A stretch of DNA of 32,000 bases from Candidatus Lokiarchaeum ossiferum (GTDB lineage: Archaea; Asgardarchaeota; Lokiarchaeia; Sigyniarchaeales; Promethearchaeaceae). The position numbers were made by a program, and so were the translations under genes. Position 1 is the first letter of the stretch. Every line of letters starts with the position of its first letter. The DNA is taken from NCBI GenBank assembly GCA_025839675.1, contig CP104013.1, positions 5,160,001 to 5,192,000 of the forward strand, in the 5' to 3' direction. The notes below the pieces were generated by a model. The model ran no database searches. It had not been told where the DNA came from and saw only the letters and a list, made by a program, of their open reading frames with translations. Positions 6,416-16,754 of the stretch are shown piece by piece.

Positions 6416-6492
6416 GGGAAAGTGGTCTAGCTTGGTATGATACTCGGCTGGGGGCCGAGTGGTCGTGCGTTCGAATCGTGCCTTTCCCACCA
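6416..6492 (+). tRNA. tRNA-Pro (anticodon GGG), CCA encoded
   Basis: Hand-folded cloverleaf. Acceptor GGGAAAG (6416-6422) pairs with CTTTCCC (6482-6488), followed by discriminator A and CCA (6490-6492). Anticodon stem is CTCGG/CCGAG with loop C-U-GGG-G-G; G37 is as expected for tRNA-Pro. T arm is GTGCG-TTCGAAT-CGTGC (with G-U pairs). The D loop carries the GG dinucleotide. Confidence 0.9.
6478..6492. repeat. attL core (15 bp, identical to attR core)
   Basis: GTGCCTTTCCCACCA, the last 15 nt of tRNA-Pro including the CCA. Confidence 0.7.
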
Positions 6493-6495
6493 TTT

Positions 6496-6523
6496 TTGTC
6501 CTCCCATTTGTGCGGACATTTCG
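6496..6523. repeat. 28-bp sub-terminal repeat, left copy (candidate integrase or accessory-protein arm site)
   Basis: TTGTCCTCCCATTTGTGCGGACATTTCG matches 14611-14638 at 25/28 positions. It contains the inverted repeat TGTCC-N12-GGACA (6497-6501 / 6514-6518). Confidence 0.6.
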
Positions 6524-7123: not shown

Positions 7124-7954
7124 ATGATGAACTCATCTTTCTTTGAAACCTTCTCACTTTACAAAAAATTGGCTTTGGGAACAGATTTCGACCCAAAATC
7201 TAAGAATTTAGATCAATTTACTCTTACTATGGATTGCAAAAATTGTAATTCTAAACAAACTTTCACTCAAATAACTTGTGAAAGATTATATGATGGTGAA
7301 ATAACAAGTGTTCGGGTTGGTTCTTCACAATTTACGGGATTACACAATGAAATTCGACTTATTAAATTTCGATGTGCGAAATGCAATAATTTCCATCGCT
7401 TTTTTATAATATATTTTGATGATAGTTTGGATTATGTGATGAAAATCGGACAATATCCTCCTTGGGATATCAGTATAAGTAAAGAAATGAAAGAAGTTTT
7501 AGAAAAAACAGATTTGAAATATTTCAAAAATGGATTAATTTGCGAATCGCAAGGATATGGAATAGGAGCATTTGCATATTATCGCAGAATTGTTGAAAAT
7601 TCAATTGAAAAATTACTCAAACTTATCCCAAATCTAATGACAGGTGATGAGAAAGCCAAATTTGAAAATGCCTTGGTTCAAGTTGAAAAAACTAGAGTTA
7701 CTGAACAAAAAATTGAACTGGTAAAAGATTTATTGCCTCCAACTCTAAGACCAAATTCTTATAATCCATTAAAAATATTACATAGCCAATTAAGCATTGG
7801 ATTGCATAGTTCTTCAGAAGAAGAATGCTTGGAAATTGCTTTACAAATACGTAGCGTTTTAGAATTCTTTATAAAACGTTTACTACAAACTAGAAAAGAA
7901 AACCAAGAATTCACGGAAAATATGAAGAAATTACTAAAGAAAAGAATTAGTTGA
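7124..7954 (+). CDS. Hypothetical protein: N-terminal zinc ribbon (CxxC...CxxC) plus C-terminal all-helical domain (possibly DUF4145/HEPN-like)
   Basis: 276 aa. CKNC (MDCKNCNSKQTF) and CAKC (FRCAKCNNFHRFF) lie about 45 residues apart. The helical part, starting at GYGIGAFAYYRRIVENSIEKLLKLI and ending LKILHSQLSIGLHSSSEEECLEIALQIRSVLEFFIKRL, recalls from memory the DUF4145 layout. This is not verified. Confidence 0.6.
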   Translation: MMNSSFFETFSLYKKLALGTDFDPKSKNLDQFTLTMDCKNCNSKQTFTQITCERLYDGEITSVRVGSSQFTGLHNEIRLIKFRCAKCNNFHRFFIIYFDDSLDYVMKIGQYPPWDISISKEMKEVLEKTDLKYFKNGLICESQGYGIGAFAYYRRIVENSIEKLLKLIPNLMTGDEKAKFENALVQVEKTRVTEQKIELVKDLLPPTLRPNSYNPLKILHSQLSIGLHSSSEEECLEIALQIRSVLEFFIKRLLQTRKENQEFTENMKKLLKKRIS

Positions 7955-8125: not shown

Positions 8126-8929
8126 ATGATTTCTGAAAGTGATAACTACCAGGGCAATTTGATCCAAAGTATATATAGTGCAAATCCAGATTTAGAAAAG
8201 ACCTATAAAATCAAAAAAATCAAATTTGCTATGAATGAAGCCCAAAGAGAAGAATTGTTAAAGATTGCTTATGAACGAAACTTCAAGCATGGTTTAATGA
8301 TTAAAACTCAATTGGAACTCGGACTTCGAGTGAATGAACTGGTAAATATGGGAATTGAACAAATCAATTTTAACCAAAGATTAATTATTATCAACTCCCG
8401 AGAAGGTTCAAAATATCTCAAAGCATTCAAAACTAAGACAAAATCAAGTAATAGAATAATACCTTTAGGATACAAATTAGCGAAGGAACTTAAAGCCTAT
8501 ATTGGAAATCGGAAAACAGGATATGTTTTTGTTTCGAATAAAGGAGGTGGGTTTATAAAAAATAGTGTAATTGATTTTATCAATAAATACTCAAACCTTT
8601 GTGTTTCCTTGCCAGTAAATCAAAAGGGTAATAAAAACATAGGCTCCCATATTCTAAGACGAACTTTTGCCTCCTATATTATCAATAATGGAATTACAAT
8701 TGATAAACTTTCTAAAGTATTAGGACACGCCTCAATTAGAACAACTATGCTTTATCTATTTGATATTACCACTCTTGATTTTGATGATATGACTAAAGTT
8801 ATAGATAAGATGAATAAAAATTCGCAAAAATACAAACCAAAAATGCGAATTCAAGAAAATAAAACTCGTGGAATTGTTAATAAAAAAGCAATCAACGAAT
8901 TTGTTGATGAATGGGGGAATAAATTATGA
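8126..8929 (+). CDS. int: Tyrosine recombinase / phage-type integrase
   Basis: 267 aa. Catalytic signature in order: GLRVNELVNM (Arg I), HILRRTFAS (H-x-x-R), and LGHASIRTTMLYL (His and the nucleophile Tyr). Confidence 0.9.
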   Translation: MISESDNYQGNLIQSIYSANPDLEKTYKIKKIKFAMNEAQREELLKIAYERNFKHGLMIKTQLELGLRVNELVNMGIEQINFNQRLIIINSREGSKYLKAFKTKTKSSNRIIPLGYKLAKELKAYIGNRKTGYVFVSNKGGGFIKNSVIDFINKYSNLCVSLPVNQKGNKNIGSHILRRTFASYIINNGITIDKLSKVLGHASIRTTMLYLFDITTLDFDDMTKVIDKMNKNSQKYKPKMRIQENKTRGIVNKKAINEFVDEWGNKL

Positions 8930-10221: not shown

Positions 10222-10932
10222 TTATGTATCCTCATCCAAATAAAACCCATATTTCTTTCTACTTTCATTAAGTATTTTTTGCATTTCTGGATCTCCAAGT
10301 GATTCTCGATATATCTTGAATTCCGAATCATCCATAAAAATACAATCATCAAATGCCAATCTTGTAAAATAATTTTTTATTTTATCCTTTAAAACTACAT
10401 TTGCATGGTCAATTATTCTCGCTTTCCAGAAAATATCCAAATTATTTTTAACTAACTCGGTAGGAATTAGGAAAATTGTTTTAAATTTTAAATGAAATGG
10501 TCCCAACTTCGTTCCATTAGGGAAATTTATCTTAGGAAAAAAGTGGTCATTAGGTTTGTTTCTAATAAAATCTCTTATCTGGTGATTGATTGCTTTAATA
10601 CATCTTTCTTTTTGTTTATTAGAGGTCAGTTTTTTAAAATCTTCATAAGAAGTATAGTCTATGTCTATTTTCTTCAATTCCCCAATTACTAGGAAATCTC
10701 CTTTTTTTGCATTTTCAATATTACATGTTTGTGTTAATATTACTCCCATCGTTGGCTCAGGCAAAACTGAGAATTTTACAGTAGGTCGTTTGTCCGTTTT
10801 TAAACAATCAACATAGAAATTCCATTCATCATCAATACCAACAGTATATAAGCTTTCTGGAAGAATTTTCGGAATATCAAATAAGATATCGCCTTGTTCG
10901 ATTCTGTCATTATGCTTAAATTTATAATACAT
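10222..10932 (-). CDS. Hypothetical protein C (236 aa), third gene of a compact three-gene operon
   Basis: Track ORF; it starts 12 nt after the stop of the upstream gene. The N-terminus has RIEQGDILFDIP ... GVILTQTCNIEN. No family recognised. Confidence 0.65.
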   Translation of the reverse strand: MYYKFKHNDRIEQGDILFDIPKILPESLYTVGIDDEWNFYVDCLKTDKRPTVKFSVLPEPTMGVILTQTCNIENAKKGDFLVIGELKKIDIDYTSYEDFKKLTSNKQKERCIKAINHQIRDFIRNKPNDHFFPKINFPNGTKLGPFHLKFKTIFLIPTELVKNNLDIFWKARIIDHANVVLKDKIKNYFTRLAFDDCIFMDDSEFKIYRESLGDPEMQKILNESRKKYGFYLDEDT

Positions 10933-10944
10933 CTAAAATCTCCT

Positions 10945-11508
10945 TTATGAGTTTTTTATTTTCAATAATTTGTATAGTATCCACGCTTGCTCCAAATATT
11001 CTTTCTTCACATTTTTTGAAAGAGAATCAAAATATTCTTTGGAAAAGGAAACTGAGATTTTATCTTTTTGTAGTCTATTCCATTGCAATTCCCCACTTAT
11101 CCTATCTAAAGACTTAATTGATATATGCTTTAATCCTGAATTTCTAAATTGCAAGAAAACATCTTCAAATTTCAATTCTGGTAAGGATTGGTTTTTTATT
11201 GCCAATTCGAGCCAAGTATCCACAAATATATCAAAAAGAAGAGATAAAATAGATTCAGAGTGTTTAGACTTAAAATAATTTAAGATATGTCGAAAGTCAA
11301 TATGTAAGACTTCGTTCTTATATTTCGCTTCCATTGTCGATGAATTAGATGTTTGTTCAAGAATCTGCCTATTATTTCGATACTCAGAAGATTTTGCATT
11401 TTTAATTTCATCAATTTTACTATTTATCCAAGAAGAAAAATCTTCTAAAGAATATTCAAAATTAGCATCATCTTCATTGAAATGTGTTTCTGGATAATTA
11501 AGAGTCAT
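10945..11508 (-). CDS. Hypothetical helical protein B (187 aa), middle gene; contains an R-N-x4-H motif (possible HEPN-type site)
   Basis: Track ORF; its start overlaps the upstream gene by 11 nt. The motif FRNSGLKH lies at residues 121-128. The rest is predicted helical from residue pattern only. Confidence 0.6.
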   Translation of the reverse strand: MTLNYPETHFNEDDANFEYSLEDFSSWINSKIDEIKNAKSSEYRNNRQILEQTSNSSTMEAKYKNEVLHIDFRHILNYFKSKHSESILSLLFDIFVDTWLELAIKNQSLPELKFEDVFLQFRNSGLKHISIKSLDRISGELQWNRLQKDKISVSFSKEYFDSLSKNVKKEYLEQAWILYKLLKIKNS

Positions 11509-12229
11509 CGAATAAACCTACCATAGATTTTGTTTTTTCTGTTAAAAAGTCCTTAAATAATAAAATTAATTTCTGATGAGCAATATCAAGATTTTTCTTT
11601 ATAGATTCAAATTCTTCTGGGTATTTTAAATTTTCATTGATATTGAAGTGTGTTTCAAGTCGAATAGTGTATTCATCCTCATTTTTCGGTGTTACACCCC
11701 TTAATCTTAGAATTGAAGTTGCCCCCTCAATATCTGTCTTGAAATTAAGTCCAATAATAAAATCTTCAAATCCAATCATGTAATCATTTGGATGTTTCAA
11801 TTTCATTTCAAAATTTTCATTTAATCTGAAATTTTCTCTATCAAAGGTAAAAATATCTATATAATCAAGAGAAATTCTAATGATATCTTTAATTTTTAAA
11901 TCATTGAAAATCATTTGACTAATTTGTAAAATTTTTGGAAAAATCTCATGCCAAGATGTATATTTGTCGTTATATTCGAACAATATTGAGTCAGAATAAA
12001 TAAGAATTGCATTATCCTTACTTTCAGATTTGAAGGTTAATGGTGAAAATGAAATCTGTTGTTCCATTACTCTTGAAGAAATTAATCTTATTGTGGTAGG
12101 TTCTGGATAACCTAAATCGCCCAATTTCTCAGATATTTTTGTTACCTTTTGAATCGTGGGTTCTTCAATTTTATTGTAGGAAATTCGAAGTACAAATTTA
12201 TCTAATCGTGGATATTTTAACTTCGTCAT
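11498..12229 (-). CDS. Hypothetical protein A (243 aa), first gene; resembles the TIGR04255 family of uncharacterised proteins
   Basis: Track ORF. The N-terminal PRLDKFVLRISY and the internal IIRISLDYIDIF recall, from memory, the N-terminal strand and the R-[IL]-G-L-R-Y-[IV]-N-like motif of TIGR04255. Not verified. A TATA-like ATATTTAAAT lies about 30 nt upstream on the minus strand. Confidence 0.65.
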   Translation of the reverse strand: MTKLKYPRLDKFVLRISYNKIEEPTIQKVTKISEKLGDLGYPEPTTIRLISSRVMEQQISFSPLTFKSESKDNAILIYSDSILFEYNDKYTSWHEIFPKILQISQMIFNDLKIKDIIRISLDYIDIFTFDRENFRLNENFEMKLKHPNDYMIGFEDFIIGLNFKTDIEGATSILRLRGVTPKNEDEYTIRLETHFNINENLKYPEEFESIKKNLDIAHQKLILLFKDFLTEKTKSMVGLFDDS

Positions 12230-12554
12230 TACTATTACTAAGGAAAATATTCATTTAAATATTGCATGGATTTACTTTCAAAAAAATATTAACCATTTGA
12301 TAACAAATTGGAAACAATTCAATAATTACACCTCTTTTAACATTTAATTTATTGAACAAAATTATTCAATTTTCCACTAACACTCTTTAATAACCCAGAA
12401 TTGAAATTAGAAAGGAATTTATAAATTCTAACAAGCGCTATTTGCGCTTAAACTACTTTTTAACCAGAAATCTCTCAAAAAATTATCCAAAATCAAAGGG
12501 TTATGAATCTATTTTGTAAAACAAAAGAGAAAAAAAAGTGATTAAAATGAGAAT

Positions 12555-12760
12555 AATTGGCGGGTAAGGACTTGGCAAGACCGTTCAATAACCCCGCAGA
12601 TTATATAGTGATTACACCCGAAGGTATCGCATACGAACTATAATCAAATTCAGTGTATGCCACTTACCCTTATTGGCTATTTTACTGAGTAATGTTGCTC
12701 CTTACCCTTGGTTTTTGGTACTAGCAAAGAAGGGATTCGAACCCAATTCAGCCTAAAACA
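12555..12760 (-). ncRNA. Candidate structured non-coding RNA / tRNA-derived relic (GC-enriched island in an AT-rich spacer)
   Basis: No ORF, and visibly more G+C than the flanks. Minus-strand features: ACC-UUCG-GGU hairpin (12625-12616); 6-bp stem 12629-12634/12655-12660; 5-bp stem 12560-12564/12593-12597; an 8-nt complementarity GGGTAAGG (12562-12569) / CCTTACCC (12700-12707); and a tRNA-like 3' end GGGTTCGAATCCC...TGCTAGTACCA (12750-12716). No complete cloverleaf can be drawn. Confidence 0.3.
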
Positions 12761-12837
12761 CCATTACTAATTGAGAAATAGCTCATTCAAGAATTTAAGC
12801 CTTAGACATTGATGATTTTATAGATCATTATACAAAA

Positions 12838-13068
12838 TTATGGTTCAAGATAGGAATAATCATTTACTTTACAGATTTGCTCAAATTTGATGTTATTTTT
12901 AGATTGAAACCAAAATTCAAATTGGATCTTCACAGGATCATTATTTTTTACTGATAAAAATTGAACTATTTTCATATATAATCCATGTTTCTTTAACCAT
13001 TTTTTCAATAGTATCTTTTCCCAATTACATAACCAAATATCCCTTAATTCCTCTGATTTTTTTTTCAT
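12838..13068 (-). CDS. Hypothetical small protein (76 aa), paralogue 1 of a tandem pair
   Basis: Track ORF. About 40 of 76 positions are identical to the neighbouring gene in my hand alignment (e.g. WLKK, QFLS, KIQFE, WF, ICK, LEP). Confidence 0.55.
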   Translation of the reverse strand: MKKKSEELRDIWLCNWEKILLKKWLKKHGLYMKIVQFLSVKNNDPVKIQFEFWFQSKNNIKFEQICKVNDYSYLEP

Positions 13069-13266
13069 AATTTCCTCACATTCGTTTTAAAAACAGTATT
13101 TGAAGTAAGAAATTATAGGAAACTTACCCTTTTAAAGATTAGGTTAGTTAGAATTACATTCCAACTAATTAGGTTTTCAGAGTTTGAGCCACAGAAATTT
13201 AAACGACACTTATTAATTCGCTTAAATATCTCTAACTAAAATGGCAAAAATCCACCCCTATACGAC

Positions 13267-13503
13267 CTATAATCCTGGTTCAAGATCGGAAAAATCAATT
13301 ATCTTACAGATTCGCTTCAATTTGATGTCTTTTTTTGAGTGAAACCATAATTCAAATTGAATCTTCCCAGGTATTTTATTTTTTGATGATAAAAATTGAA
13401 AAATTTCTTGTAATAATCTGTTTTTCTTCAACCAAATTATGAATAATATCTTATCCAATCCACCTAAACGTATTTCCCCTAAATTCACTGATTTTCTATG
13501 CAT
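13267..13503 (-). CDS. Hypothetical small protein (78 aa), paralogue 2 of a tandem pair
   Basis: The track ORF extends to 13551. The ATG at 13503 (MHRKSVNLGEI...) aligns with the start of paralogue 1, and the conserved upstream block AAAAACA(A/G)TATTTGAAGTAAGAA then falls outside both CDSs. Confidence 0.55.
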   Translation of the reverse strand: MHRKSVNLGEIRLGGLDKILFIIWLKKNRLLQEIFQFLSSKNKIPGKIQFELWFHSKKDIKLKRICKIIDFSDLEPGL

Positions 13504-13804
13504 TAATCCCACCATAATCTTTCGCAAAAACAATATTTGAAGTAAGAACATCTAAGAATTATATATTTTTAAGTTTTGGGTTAATAGATTTCTCATGTTC
13601 CGCATTTGGTCGAAAAAATTAGATTTACTAAATTCTAATGGTGTTCTTATGAAGTATAGATACTTGAAGTCAAAAATCTCAAAAAAATACCCATTATTTC
13701 TAATTAATTAGATTAACTGAATTTCATGTATTTCTTCACAATTATTTTAGACTTAAGGTTAAAAATAGAACTAAAAAATCTTTAAAACCCGGATTTCACA
13801 TATC

Positions 13805-14473: not shown

Positions 14474-14610
14474 TACAATCAAAATCCATTTTTTTATTGA
14501 ATTAATAGACTCAAAATATTAGATTTTACTAACACTTGAATATACAAAAGGAGTGCTCTCCCCCGAATGCACCACGGCTTAAGTTTATTGTTTTACAAGT
14601 GTAATTTTTT

Positions 14611-14638
14611 TTGTCCGTTCATTTGTGCGGACATTTCG
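14611..14638. repeat. 28-bp sub-terminal repeat, right copy
   Basis: TTGTCCGTTCATTTGTGCGGACATTTCG; the inverted repeat TGTCC-N12-GGACA is conserved (14612-14616 / 14629-14633). It lies 8 nt before the attR core. Confidence 0.6.
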
Positions 14639-14646
14639 TTTGGGAT

Positions 14647-14661
14647 GTGCCTTTCCCACCA
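14647..14661. repeat. attR core (15 bp, identical to attL core)
   Basis: GTGCCTTTCCCACCA; no tRNA body lies upstream of it. Confidence 0.7.
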
Positions 14662-14741: not shown

Positions 14742-15194
14742 ATGGATTCCCGAAAATTTTCTTATAATTGTGAAAATTGTGGTACTGAGGTTAACGCCTA
14801 TATACCTAAGTCTTGTATTTCATGTGGCATTAAACTATGTAGGGATTGTCAAATCAACCAACTGTGCAAACCTCATTTCTTAGGAATGAATTCAGTTGAT
14901 CAAACACAAGTTAGGAGTCAAAGCAAAAATATTCAAGTTTTATGGTTGGTTTTAAAGGTATACTTCGCCGCCTTCGTAGTTATTACTCTTTTTATCCGAG
15001 CAAGAAAGTTTTTCGATTTGGGTGATGAAAATGCGTATTTTATAGGAAATATTATTCAATACTCCATGTTTTTTGTATTTATTGCCTTATTTGCAGGGAT
15101 TTATAAATTTACAAATAAGAAAAGAAGGGTAATTAGAAATATATGTTCCAATTCCTTTGGAAACGATGAAAAATCGTTCAAAAATGTTGATTAG
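14742..15194 (+). CDS. Zinc-ribbon membrane protein (N-terminal Cys cluster, two C-terminal TM helices)
   Basis: 150 aa. The Cys cluster is YNCENCGTEV...SCISCGIKLCRDCQINQLCKPHF. The hydrophobic helices are VLWLVLKVYFAAFVVITLFI and YSMFFVFIALFAGIY. Confidence 0.6.
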   Translation: MDSRKFSYNCENCGTEVNAYIPKSCISCGIKLCRDCQINQLCKPHFLGMNSVDQTQVRSQSKNIQVLWLVLKVYFAAFVVITLFIRARKFFDLGDENAYFIGNIIQYSMFFVFIALFAGIYKFTNKKRRVIRNICSNSFGNDEKSFKNVD

Positions 15195-15365
15195 ACTCTT
15201 TGGGATATAATTCAGATTAAATTTGGTTTTACGCTTCCTTTTTTCTCTATAAATATGAATTTTTTACAGTTTTAGGCCATTTCCATTGAAATAAACAAAA
15301 AAGAACTGCGATGATATTTCTTCAACCTTAAGATAAAGCAAAAAAAAAAGATTTAAAATAGTGAG

Positions 15366-16754
15366 TTAAATCAATCCAAATTTCTGCCCACAATATTCGC
15401 AAAATCGATTTTGAGAATTATCTCTTCTTTCCCCACATTTTGGACAAAATTTTTCACTGGAATTTGATTGAACTGTATGTTTTTGTGTTTCATCTCCACC
15501 ATTATATCCATTGGTATGAATTCGGAAAGATGATTGAATTGGTTTTAAATGAGACAAACAGGATGCTAAGATAATCCAGCAAACGGAAGCAATTATTATT
15601 CCTAACCAAAGCCAATTTAAATGGTCACGATTTCCAAAAAGATAATATCTCAAGATAAGTGAAATACTTACTGTTATTAAAAGTCCAATAGTCGAAAAGA
15701 CGGTTATTTTTTTGTGATACAGTCTCTTTTTCCAGATTTGAATATAATACCCATGCCAAACGATTGCATTTCCCCATGATAAGATGGTAATTAAAGACCA
15801 AGGATTTTCCATTATACCTCCATTTATTGCATTTAAAATGACTAAGAAACTATTAACTAATAAATAGATGATTAGGTGGTTCCAGAAAGCAATTCTATGC
15901 CAAACATGCCTGAAAGCTAATGGTTTGGATGTTGTTACTGTAGTGGGGATTTGATTAATTACTTTATTTTGCATCTTCGTGAAAAGTGAAATGTTTTTGT
16001 TGAATCGTGGAGTAATTATAGAGTATATGATATAATGATTAATCCATGCTAGTCCAAGGGGGATGGCCGCAAACCAGATCCAATTTAAGTGGTGGTCTCC
16101 CTTTAAATCGATCCAGAATAAGAAAAGGGCAATGAGACCTAAAACCGTTCCATTTATTACAAGTCCGCGAACAGAATATTGTTGAATGTGTTCGATTGAA
16201 TAAATTACTGATGTGTGAATTCCAAAGGCGATAGTCCACGCTAAAAGCGGCCACAAAAACCATAAATTACTTGGACCAGTAAATAGGTTTATGAAGAAGA
16301 GTGTTAAATTAACCCAAATATACACACCTACATGAATCGCTAAACCTATCTTTGTTCCTTCTGAAAATTTTCTATTTGATAATATAACTGAACCATGGAT
16401 TCCCCATGGTAATCCTAAACCTATCAAGGCCCATAAGTGCCAAGGATATGAATAACCTGCTAAGAGGTTCATTCCAAAAACGGCCAGATTTATTGAAATC
16501 ACCGCTGAAGCATGGATTGCTAATCCTCTGGATCCAGAATCCCCGAATTGAGTGATTGCAAGATGTGTTCCAGCATGACAACCTAAGAAAATCCCCCACC
16601 CAAGAACTGACCATAAATGCCAAGGATATTGGTATCCTACTGCTAAATTTATGATAAGTAGAATCAAATTAACAGAAATATATGTTAATAAGTGTATTTT
16701 AAGTCCTTTCCCACGTGTTTTATGAGAAATTTCATTGTAAACTTCATTTTCCAT
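15366..16754 (-). CDS. Polytopic membrane protein with about 6 tandem 2TM-type repeats and a C-terminal zinc ribbon
   Basis: 462 aa. A ~50-aa unit repeats: GLKIHLLTYISVNLILLIINLAVGYQYPWHLWSVLGWGIFLGCHAGTH / GLAIHASAVISINLAVFGMNLLAGYSYPWHLWALIGLGLPWGIHGSV / GLAIHVGVYIWVNLTLFFINLFTGPSNLWFLWPLLAWTIAFGIHTSV / two to three more degenerate copies. This matches, from memory, the 2TM domain pattern. The C-terminus is CPKCGERRDNSQNRFCEYCGQKF. Confidence 0.7.
   Translation of the reverse strand: MENEVYNEISHKTRGKGLKIHLLTYISVNLILLIINLAVGYQYPWHLWSVLGWGIFLGCHAGTHLAITQFGDSGSRGLAIHASAVISINLAVFGMNLLAGYSYPWHLWALIGLGLPWGIHGSVILSNRKFSEGTKIGLAIHVGVYIWVNLTLFFINLFTGPSNLWFLWPLLAWTIAFGIHTSVIYSIEHIQQYSVRGLVINGTVLGLIALFLFWIDLKGDHHLNWIWFAAIPLGLAWINHYIIYSIITPRFNKNISLFTKMQNKVINQIPTTVTTSKPLAFRHVWHRIAFWNHLIIYLLVNSFLVILNAINGGIMENPWSLITILSWGNAIVWHGYYIQIWKKRLYHKKITVFSTIGLLITVSISLILRYYLFGNRDHLNWLWLGIIIASVCWIILASCLSHLKPIQSSFRIHTNGYNGGDETQKHTVQSNSSEKFCPKCGERRDNSQNRFCEYCGQKFGLI

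Follow-up and report, generated by a model that had tools for sequence, protein, structure and literature searches.

Organization of a three-gene cassette on a Lokiarchaeal integrated element

We analyzed a 32,000-nucleotide stretch of the Candidatus Lokiarchaeum ossiferum genome (GenBank assembly GCA_025839675.1, contig CP104013.1, positions 5,160,001 to 5,192,000 of the forward strand; hereafter, the window), in which three tightly packed minus-strand genes, here called A, B, and C, ride an 8.2-kb integrase-bearing element inserted in tRNA-Pro. An earlier note, made from the sequence alone, had singled out this trio as a possible defense or addiction module. The genes and their putative expression signals are as follows (window coordinates; aa, amino acids; nt, nucleotides).

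11498-12229, minus strand: gene A, 243 aa, a TIGR04255 family member and the first gene of the cassette
10945-11508, minus strand: gene B, 187 aa, a helical, fast-evolving middle protein
10222-10932, minus strand: gene C, 236 aa, founding a family with no Pfam or PADLOC model
12253-12260, minus strand: TATA-like box ATTTAAAT, read from the sequence, 24-31 nt 5′ of the ATG of A, a putative operon promoter
10940-10944, minus strand: AGGAG, Shine-Dalgarno-like, in the B/C spacer, 7 nt 5′ of the ATG of C

The open reading frame (ORF) listing reproduced the gene sizes given in the earlier note, together with the 11-nt overlap between A and B and the 12-nt gap between B and C, and all the peptides that it quoted were found (PRLDKFVLRISY, IIRISLDYIDIF, FRNSGLKH, QGDILFDIP, and GVILTQTCNIE). 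Genes C and A are 100% identical to NEF87_004418 and NEF87_004420, respectively, of Ca. L. ossiferum. The trio converges, as described in the note, with the integrase operon, a plus-strand block at 8126-8929 with small ORFs up to 10139. The TATA-like box that the note assigned to the trio is present upstream of A but constitutes weak promoter evidence, since similar AT-rich heptamers (TTTAWAW) occur at 2.15 per kb per strand across the element, the DNA of which has a GC content of 27%. The AGGAG preceding C is consistent with internal translation initiation on a polycistronic mRNA.

Gene A heads three-gene cassettes and belongs to the TIGR04255 family

Protein A matches the NCBIfam model TIGR04255 nearly over its full length (50.4 bits, E = 2.6e-13, profile positions 6-248 of 252), above the curated cut-off of 30 bits for the whole-protein score, and the family membership suggested in the earlier note is therefore borne out. 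Lokiarchaeal A orthologs score 48.5 and 54.4 bits, and the A protein of a bacterial cassette 141.9 bits. NCBIfam describes TIGR04255 as a “sporadically distributed protein” with no assigned function, and we found no mention of the family (CHP04255, IPR026349) in the searchable literature. No Pfam or PDB relative of A was detected, even with a profile of 44 sequences, in the alignment of which one Glu and one His are the sole near-invariant polar residues. This scarcity of conserved polar residues favors a role for A in binding, sensing, or regulation over one as an enzyme. What is new here is the context of the family: its members head three-gene cassettes that end in MazF-type or other small genes.

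The A-B-C order is conserved in archaea and bacteria

The 10 Lokiarchaeal-type loci that are covered by sufficient sequence all have the three genes in the same order; they are the locus of the window, L002/L003, L011 (Lokiarchaeote CR_4), L012, L013, L112-L115, and L117. Conservation of orthologous trios in the 9 loci other than the window indicates that these are real genes. Every Lokiarchaeal trio is headed by an A ortholog (40-46% identity), and the C proteins share 40-47% identity, with B orthologs sharing only 21-33%. Several Lokiarchaeal copies are disrupted, with A split in L113, B frameshifted in L012, and C truncated in L011, L118, and L119; this could mean either that a costly module is truly decaying or that the metagenome assemblies contain errors. 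Disrupted copies are common for toxin genes.

In a genome collection with one genome per species, 112 stretches, nearly all bacterial, encode a C relative, and the best 80 of the 112 were analyzed. A TIGR04255-like gene lies on the same strand, ending ~370 nt upstream of C, in 66 of the 80 loci, which span more than 15 phyla, and a middle ORF of ~120-145 aa was found in 59 of these 66, its stop overlapping the start of C by 4 nt in most. Among the 14 exceptions, four run off contig ends, L097 has a divergent A, and L048 and L051 have a degraded A, whereas the other seven lack A and encode long C proteins (306-433 aa) that group in one clade, mostly from Pyrinomonadaceae. The earlier note had proposed asking whether the trio co-occurs in other genomes and whether its members match housekeeping families; the fixed order in the Lokiarchaeal loci and in the 66 genome loci answers the former in the affirmative, and none of A, B, or C is a housekeeping protein. 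In an archaeal locus from Methanotrichaceae archaeon M04Ac (L014:4800-7008), the C homolog is preceded by genes for proteins of 204 and 198 aa and followed by a gene for a protein of 111 aa; the 204-aa protein has no TIGR04255 match at E < 0.1 and could be an A that has diverged strongly or another protein that has taken its place.

Gene C founds a widespread protein family

Protein C from the window has no match in Pfam, NCBIfam, PADLOC, PHROG, or PDB sequences, and 76 members of its family yielded no Pfam match and just three isolated, chance-level matches in PADLOC, in keeping with the statement of the earlier note that C belongs to no recognized family. The family comprises 111 representative clusters at 50% identity (exhaustive profile search) and at least 602 clusters at 90% identity (word-seeded search), distributed across many bacterial phyla and methanogens, and all these relatives are annotated as hypothetical. 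Residues Y3, Q13, G14, D15, P21, W37, Q68, C70, R191, and E204 are invariant in alignments of 76-121 members. The near-invariant D71 is replaced by N in the window copy. The bacterial consensus contains an RP dipeptide before the strand (VRPVxAIVATQDCD), whereas the Lokiarchaeal C proteins lack it. Searches of phage collections and IMG/VR with bacterial or Lokiarchaeal seeds recovered no C homolog, and Lokiarchaeal-type A was likewise absent from the IMG/VR search.

The seven long-form C proteins (L066 and L069-L074; Pyrinomonadaceae and other Acidobacteriota) extend at the C-terminus into a further helical domain of ~100-220 aa that matches no Pfam model; in L070, this extension is encoded by a 135-aa ORF of its own. 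A conserved gene for a protein of ~566-570 aa follows long-form C in four loci.

Structural modeling predicts a MazF/PemK-like fold for C

An initial model of C, built from a 4-sequence alignment, reached a pLDDT of 42 and was discarded. The model built from the 121-sequence alignment (pLDDT 86.8, pTM 0.75) was compared with the PDB using Foldseek, and the top 15 matches were all to MazF (MazF-mt1 and MazF-mt3; probability 0.87-0.98, TM-score 0.54-0.66 normalized to MazF), with antibody noise further down the list. Against viral structures, an annotated endoribonuclease was the sole credible match (probability 0.95). The strand order and C-terminal helix of the model appear to fit the MazF barrel, from which C differs by helical insertions at residues ~23-58 and ~95-125 and, beyond residue ~195, by a helical extension. 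Protein C is thus predicted to have a MazF/PemK-like fold.

Some viral sister cassettes carry PemK in the position of C

Cassettes that begin with TIGR04255 and continue with two closely spaced genes also occur in viral contigs and in a Pantoea prophage. The third gene of L105-L108 (124-126 aa) encodes a full-length match to Pfam PemK_toxin (27.8 bits against a gathering threshold of 23.1), and that of the viral cassette L109 encodes a short C-family member of 184 aa. The presence of a canonical PemK in the slot of C lends independent support to both the fold assignment and the toxin reading of C. The earlier note had sought the nuclease of the trio in B; given the predicted fold of C and the PemK of the sister cassettes, the nuclease-like candidate is C instead.

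A further cassette type, found in L104:5001-6849 (a plasmid prophage of Pantoea sp. Lij88) and L110:3989-5827, consists of A, a 189-aa protein with a W-D-G-x-G/D motif, and a protein of ~150 aa. These two partners are unrelated to B and C, and profile comparison shows no relation to C. The Pantoea prophage cassette sits between the lysis genes and the terminase.

Gene B, a proposed modular partner of A and C

Protein B has no match in Pfam, NCBIfam, PADLOC, or PDB, the last including a profile search. The earlier note had read FRNSGLKH in B as a possible HEPN RNase motif (R122-x5-H128), which would make B the nuclease effector of the module. The motif is indeed present in the window copy and B is helical, but neither R122 nor H128 is kept in any ortholog: the aligned sites read FYANGFRI, FFNYGLRI, and FNLYGFRI, so that R122 is replaced by Y, F, or N and H128 by I, and no HEPN family matched B in Pfam, NCBIfam, or PADLOC, nor in PDB by profile. 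The HEPN reading was accordingly rejected, and we consider it hardly credible.

The modular structure of bacterial B emerges from the long-form loci that lack A, where a gene of ~63 aa overlaps the start of C and is homologous to the last ~55 aa of bacterial B (E = 2e-9 to 2e-6). This shared C-terminal module is helical and ends in an acidic tail containing W or Y; in bacterial B, the last 35 residues have a net charge of −3, and a Trp occurs within the last 12 residues in 43 of 59 proteins. The C-terminal module of B thus travels with C, whereas the N-terminal half occurs only in loci that have A, which suggests that B bridges A and C. The layout of B and C is that of type II toxin–antitoxin pairs, with a small gene immediately 5′ of C and apparent translational coupling, to which the AGGAG-containing spacer of the window and the 4-nt stop/start overlap of most bacterial loci both point.

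The cassette is often nested in methylation-based defense operons

Among 114 immediate neighbors of the bacterial trios, the families that recur are those of defense proteins: PglX (6), BrxHI (4), PglZ (2), DUF1156 methylase (5), HmaA (3), HmaB (3), type IIG restriction-methylase (3), and N6_N4 methylases (6). Hma-type homologs are present in 10 loci, and in L017-L020 and L024/L025 the trio is inserted between the genes for the HmaA helicase and DUF1156 (HmaB) or DUF499 (HmaC). In total, about a fifth or more of the trio loci are nested in BREX, Hma, or restriction-modification (R-M) operons. The enrichment near defense genes that the earlier note had suggested looking for is thus apparent, with the trios lying next to and often inside such operons, as is the association with mobile elements, on which other copies besides that in the window are also found.

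The composition of the trio corresponds to no described system in PADLOC-DB 2.0.0 or the searchable literature, as the earlier note had supposed. The PADLOC-DB 2.0.0 scan, another check that it proposed, covered A, B, and C of the window, none of which had a match, and the 76 C-family members, bacterial-type A being left out. Payne et al. predicted defenses embedded in Hma, BREX, and R-M systems and confirmed seven of them (“guilt by embedding”) (10.1101/2024.01.29.577857). The trio shares the context of their HEC/PDC candidates (HmaA-HmaB/HmaC; PglX, PglZ, BrxH), whereas none of HEC-01 to HEC-09 has its composition, and TIGR04255, PemK, and MazF are unmentioned in the text and 11 supplementary files of that study (10.1101/2024.01.29.577857). 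MazF or PemK modules are also unmentioned in a 2026 survey of BREX diversity (PMC12839542). For L. ossiferum B35 itself, a published inventory made with PADLOC 2.0.0 and DefenseFinder 2.0.0 names viperin, R-M/DrmD, Pycsar, Gabija, type IIG R-M, Prometheus, and DMS, and it contains nothing resembling the trio (10.64898/2026.02.13.705702).

Two alternative explanations bear on this genomic distribution. In one, which we regard as unlikely, the trio would be purely an addiction module that stabilizes its element through post-segregational killing, with C as the toxin, B as the antitoxin, and A as a transcriptional or stability regulator, and with no antiviral role. The window copy and other Lokiarchaeal copies are indeed cargo of related small mobile elements, prophage and viral copies exist, and most bacterial copies have ordinary neighbors. 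Addiction modules are usually abundant on plasmids, whereas the C family has no match in 72,556 plasmid records. Furthermore, the bacterial cassette is repeatedly nested in chromosomal BREX, Hma, and R-M operons, a context in which real antiviral systems have been predicted (10.1101/2024.01.29.577857).

In the other, which appears very unlikely, the trio would lack toxicity and play an accessory or regulatory part in methylation-based systems or mobile elements; it might, for example, modulate BREX or Hma, serve as anti-defense cargo, or be a set of conserved element proteins. Its insertion between Hma core genes and beside BREX genes fits this view, as does the lack of a recognizable biochemical domain in A or B. 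However, most copies, including those on the archaeal elements, have no BREX, Hma, or R-M neighbor, and the cassette is therefore autonomous, yet often nested in methylation-based defense operons. A MazF-like or PemK third gene preceded by a small overlapping partner also fits a toxin–antitoxin layout.

A candidate tripartite toxin–antitoxin-like module

On balance, the evidence tips modestly in favor of the trio being an undescribed tripartite toxin–antitoxin-like defense or addiction module, in which C would be the effector, B its neutralizer and an adaptor, and A a sensor or regulator. The window trio would then represent the Lokiarchaeal branch of a widespread module found on mobile elements and in defense islands. 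Protein C, with a divergent MazF/PemK fold and its own Q-x-C-D loop, would most likely act as a growth-arresting toxin, plausibly an RNase. Protein B, encoded immediately 5′ of C with coupled translation, would serve as the cognate neutralizer of C and also as an adaptor, its C-terminal helix with the acidic aromatic tail pairing with C and its N-terminal half with A. Finally, A, the conserved hallmark of the module, would couple the release of C to a trigger, for example, infection or loss of the element. We infer the toxicity of C, its neutralization by B, and the role of A from fold, layout, and context, which would be compatible with either defense or addiction as the outcome.

Several observations weigh against this assignment. 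The Foldseek E values of the matches between C and MazF are 0.07-0.3, none being ≤0.001, and the aligned regions share ~8% identity and cover about half of C, with a TM-score of ~0.3 when normalized to C. No link at the sequence level was found by Pfam (PF02452), PDB profile search, or hhalign. Comparisons by hhalign of the C family with MazF, Kid, and EndoA seeds and with the viral PemK protein gave nothing, and jackhmmer searches from the MazF, Kid, and EndoA seeds across all ORFs of the retrieved loci also found nothing; these seed sequences were unvalidated. The catalytic residues of MazF RNases are an Arg before strand 2 and a Thr or Ser after strand 3, and the corresponding Arg and Thr are not recognizably conserved in the C family, where the invariant Q68, C70, R191, and E204 suggest a different active site. 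The C-family proteins are acidic (median pI 5.4), which is atypical of RNA-binding MazF toxins, and the activity of the window copy could be attenuated by its D71N replacement. Domain and profile searches detected no DNA-binding domain in B, and Lokiarchaeal and bacterial B proteins show no similarity by hhalign or hmmsearch, the middle slot apparently being kept by position and not by sequence, a form of conservation typical of antitoxin-like partners. Lastly, most loci do not lie beside known defense genes, their other neighbors being unrelated housekeeping genes. The pairing of an acidic antitoxin with a basic toxin was also considered as a criterion and set aside as not discriminating, the C-family proteins themselves being acidic.

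The Q-x-C-D loop, the absence of recognizable MazF catalytic residues, and the acidic pI would also be compatible with a chemistry of C other than RNA cleavage. According to this unlikely alternative, C would be a cysteine-dependent enzyme or a binding protein built on a MazF/CcdB-like barrel, with a chemistry new for the fold, and not an RNase toxin; CcdB, for instance, poisons gyrase. The invariance of Q68 and C70, joined by R191, E204, and the nearly invariant D71, is consistent with such a role, as are the lack of a profile link to PemK, the large helical insertions, and the C-terminal extension. On the other hand, all structurally characterized close fold matches of C are endoribonucleases, the equivalent slot of the sister cassettes holds a member of the canonical PemK RNase family, and the C family has no invariant His that could form a Cys-His catalytic pair.

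Relationship to known toxin–antitoxin systems

The proposed tripartite module recalls MazEF/PemIK (Kid-Kis), the toxin of which C is predicted to resemble in its core fold. Shared features are a small partner gene directly upstream that overlaps or abuts the (putative) toxin gene, carriage on mobile elements, and, in the sister TIGR04255 cassettes, a true PemK-family gene (PF02452). The acidic, Trp-containing C-terminal tail of bacterial B is reminiscent of the tail of MazE. Nevertheless, C is twice the size of MazF, contains helical insertions and a C-terminal domain, has no sequence match to PF02452, and displays a different invariant motif (QGD, Q-x-C-D, R191, and E204). Furthermore, B lacks the AbrB or RHH DNA-binding domain, and the trio has an obligatory, larger third component, TIGR04255, preceding the pair.

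In gene layout, the trio can be likened to the tripartite toxin–antitoxin modules omega-epsilon-zeta, TAC (toxin–antitoxin–chaperone), and CmdTAC, in which three genes are co-transcribed and a third protein controls the toxin–antitoxin pair; the accessory-antitoxin-toxin order of omega-epsilon-zeta is the same as A-B-C. No homology to these modules was detected, however: A is neither an RHH repressor nor recognizably a SecB-like chaperone, and the trio's effector is predicted to be MazF-like as opposed to a zeta kinase, HigB, or an ADP-ribosyltransferase. CmdTAC shows that tripartite modules can be antiviral (PMC11618068).

A broader proposition, which we put forward tentatively and consider possible although not probable, is that TIGR04255 marks a large, unrecognized class of immune or addiction systems in Bacteria, Archaea, and their viruses, which would be tripartite and modular, combining a sensor A, a two-module adaptor B, and interchangeable effectors (PemK/MazF, the Q-x-C-D family of C, and at least one further type of ~150 aa), with C using a cysteine chemistry new for the MazF/CcdB fold. 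Confirmation of the tripartite module itself would provide a function for TIGR04255, which is so far an orphan in the annotation pipeline of NCBI, define the C family, with its at least 602 clusters and no Pfam model, as divergent MazF-fold effectors, and add a new three-component entry to the catalog of defense and toxin–antitoxin systems, with representatives in BREX and Hma operons, prophage moron slots, and the mobile elements of Asgard archaea, the mobilome and immunity of which are still poorly charted. The existence of versions with and without A, in which B changes to match, makes the sensor/adaptor/effector division of labor directly testable.

The carrier element and its surroundings

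The element that carries the trio is delimited by the following features.

6416-6492, plus strand: tRNA-Pro(GGG) gene, called by ARAGORN and Rfam tRNA
6478-6492, plus strand: attL core, the 3′ end of tRNA-Pro(GGG), 15-nt exact repeat GTGCCTTTCCCACCA
8126-8929, plus strand: tyrosine integrase (Pfam Phage_integrase, 87.6 bits), convergent with the trio
14647-14661, plus strand: attR core, duplicate of the tRNA-Pro 3′ end, 15-nt exact repeat that closes the element

An integrase-encoding segment thus lies between two direct copies of the tRNA 3′ end, the arrangement by which tRNA-integrating elements are recognized, and the GC content falls from about 35% to 27-30% within it, which confirms that the trio resides on an element, as the earlier note had stated. 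Just inside both ends, beside the 15-nt att cores, lies a 31-nt direct repeat (6493-6523 and 14608-14638; TTTTTGTCC...CATTTGTGCGGACATTTCG, 90% identical), the copies of which may be arm-type binding sites of the integrase.

Besides the integrase, the element encodes a 276-aa protein (7124-7954, plus strand) with a match to phrog_25239 (E = 2e-40) and a weak one to a phage DNA-binding PHROG. A homolog with 40% identity is encoded upstream of the trio at the metagenomic locus L115:180-1025, and such shared flanking genes suggest that the Lokiarchaeal trios are carried by a family of related mobile elements.

Directly upstream of the promoter region of the trio is a tandem duplication (12836-13583) with a unit of ~435 nt, in which 240 nt align at 75% identity and a further 58 nt at 74%. 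The two copies carry paralogous small minus-strand ORFs (76 aa, 12838-13068; 94 aa, 13267-13551). A GC-richer non-coding patch at 12540-12760 contains, on the minus strand at 12732-12744, GGGTTCGAATCCC, which corresponds perfectly to a tRNA/tmRNA T-arm and precedes a stretch resembling an acceptor. This tRNA-like patch (12.56-12.76 kb) was rejected as an RNA gene, with no ARAGORN or Rfam call and just a 13-nt T-arm fragment; it may be what is left of a tRNA 3′ half and hence of an old att site, which would hint at a composite element. Just outside attR, the GC content remains low (~30%) across 14742-16754, which encodes a 150-aa protein with a weak PHROG match and, on the minus strand, a 462-aa protein with four 2TM domains (PF13239); this stretch may represent a second, older island adjoining the element.

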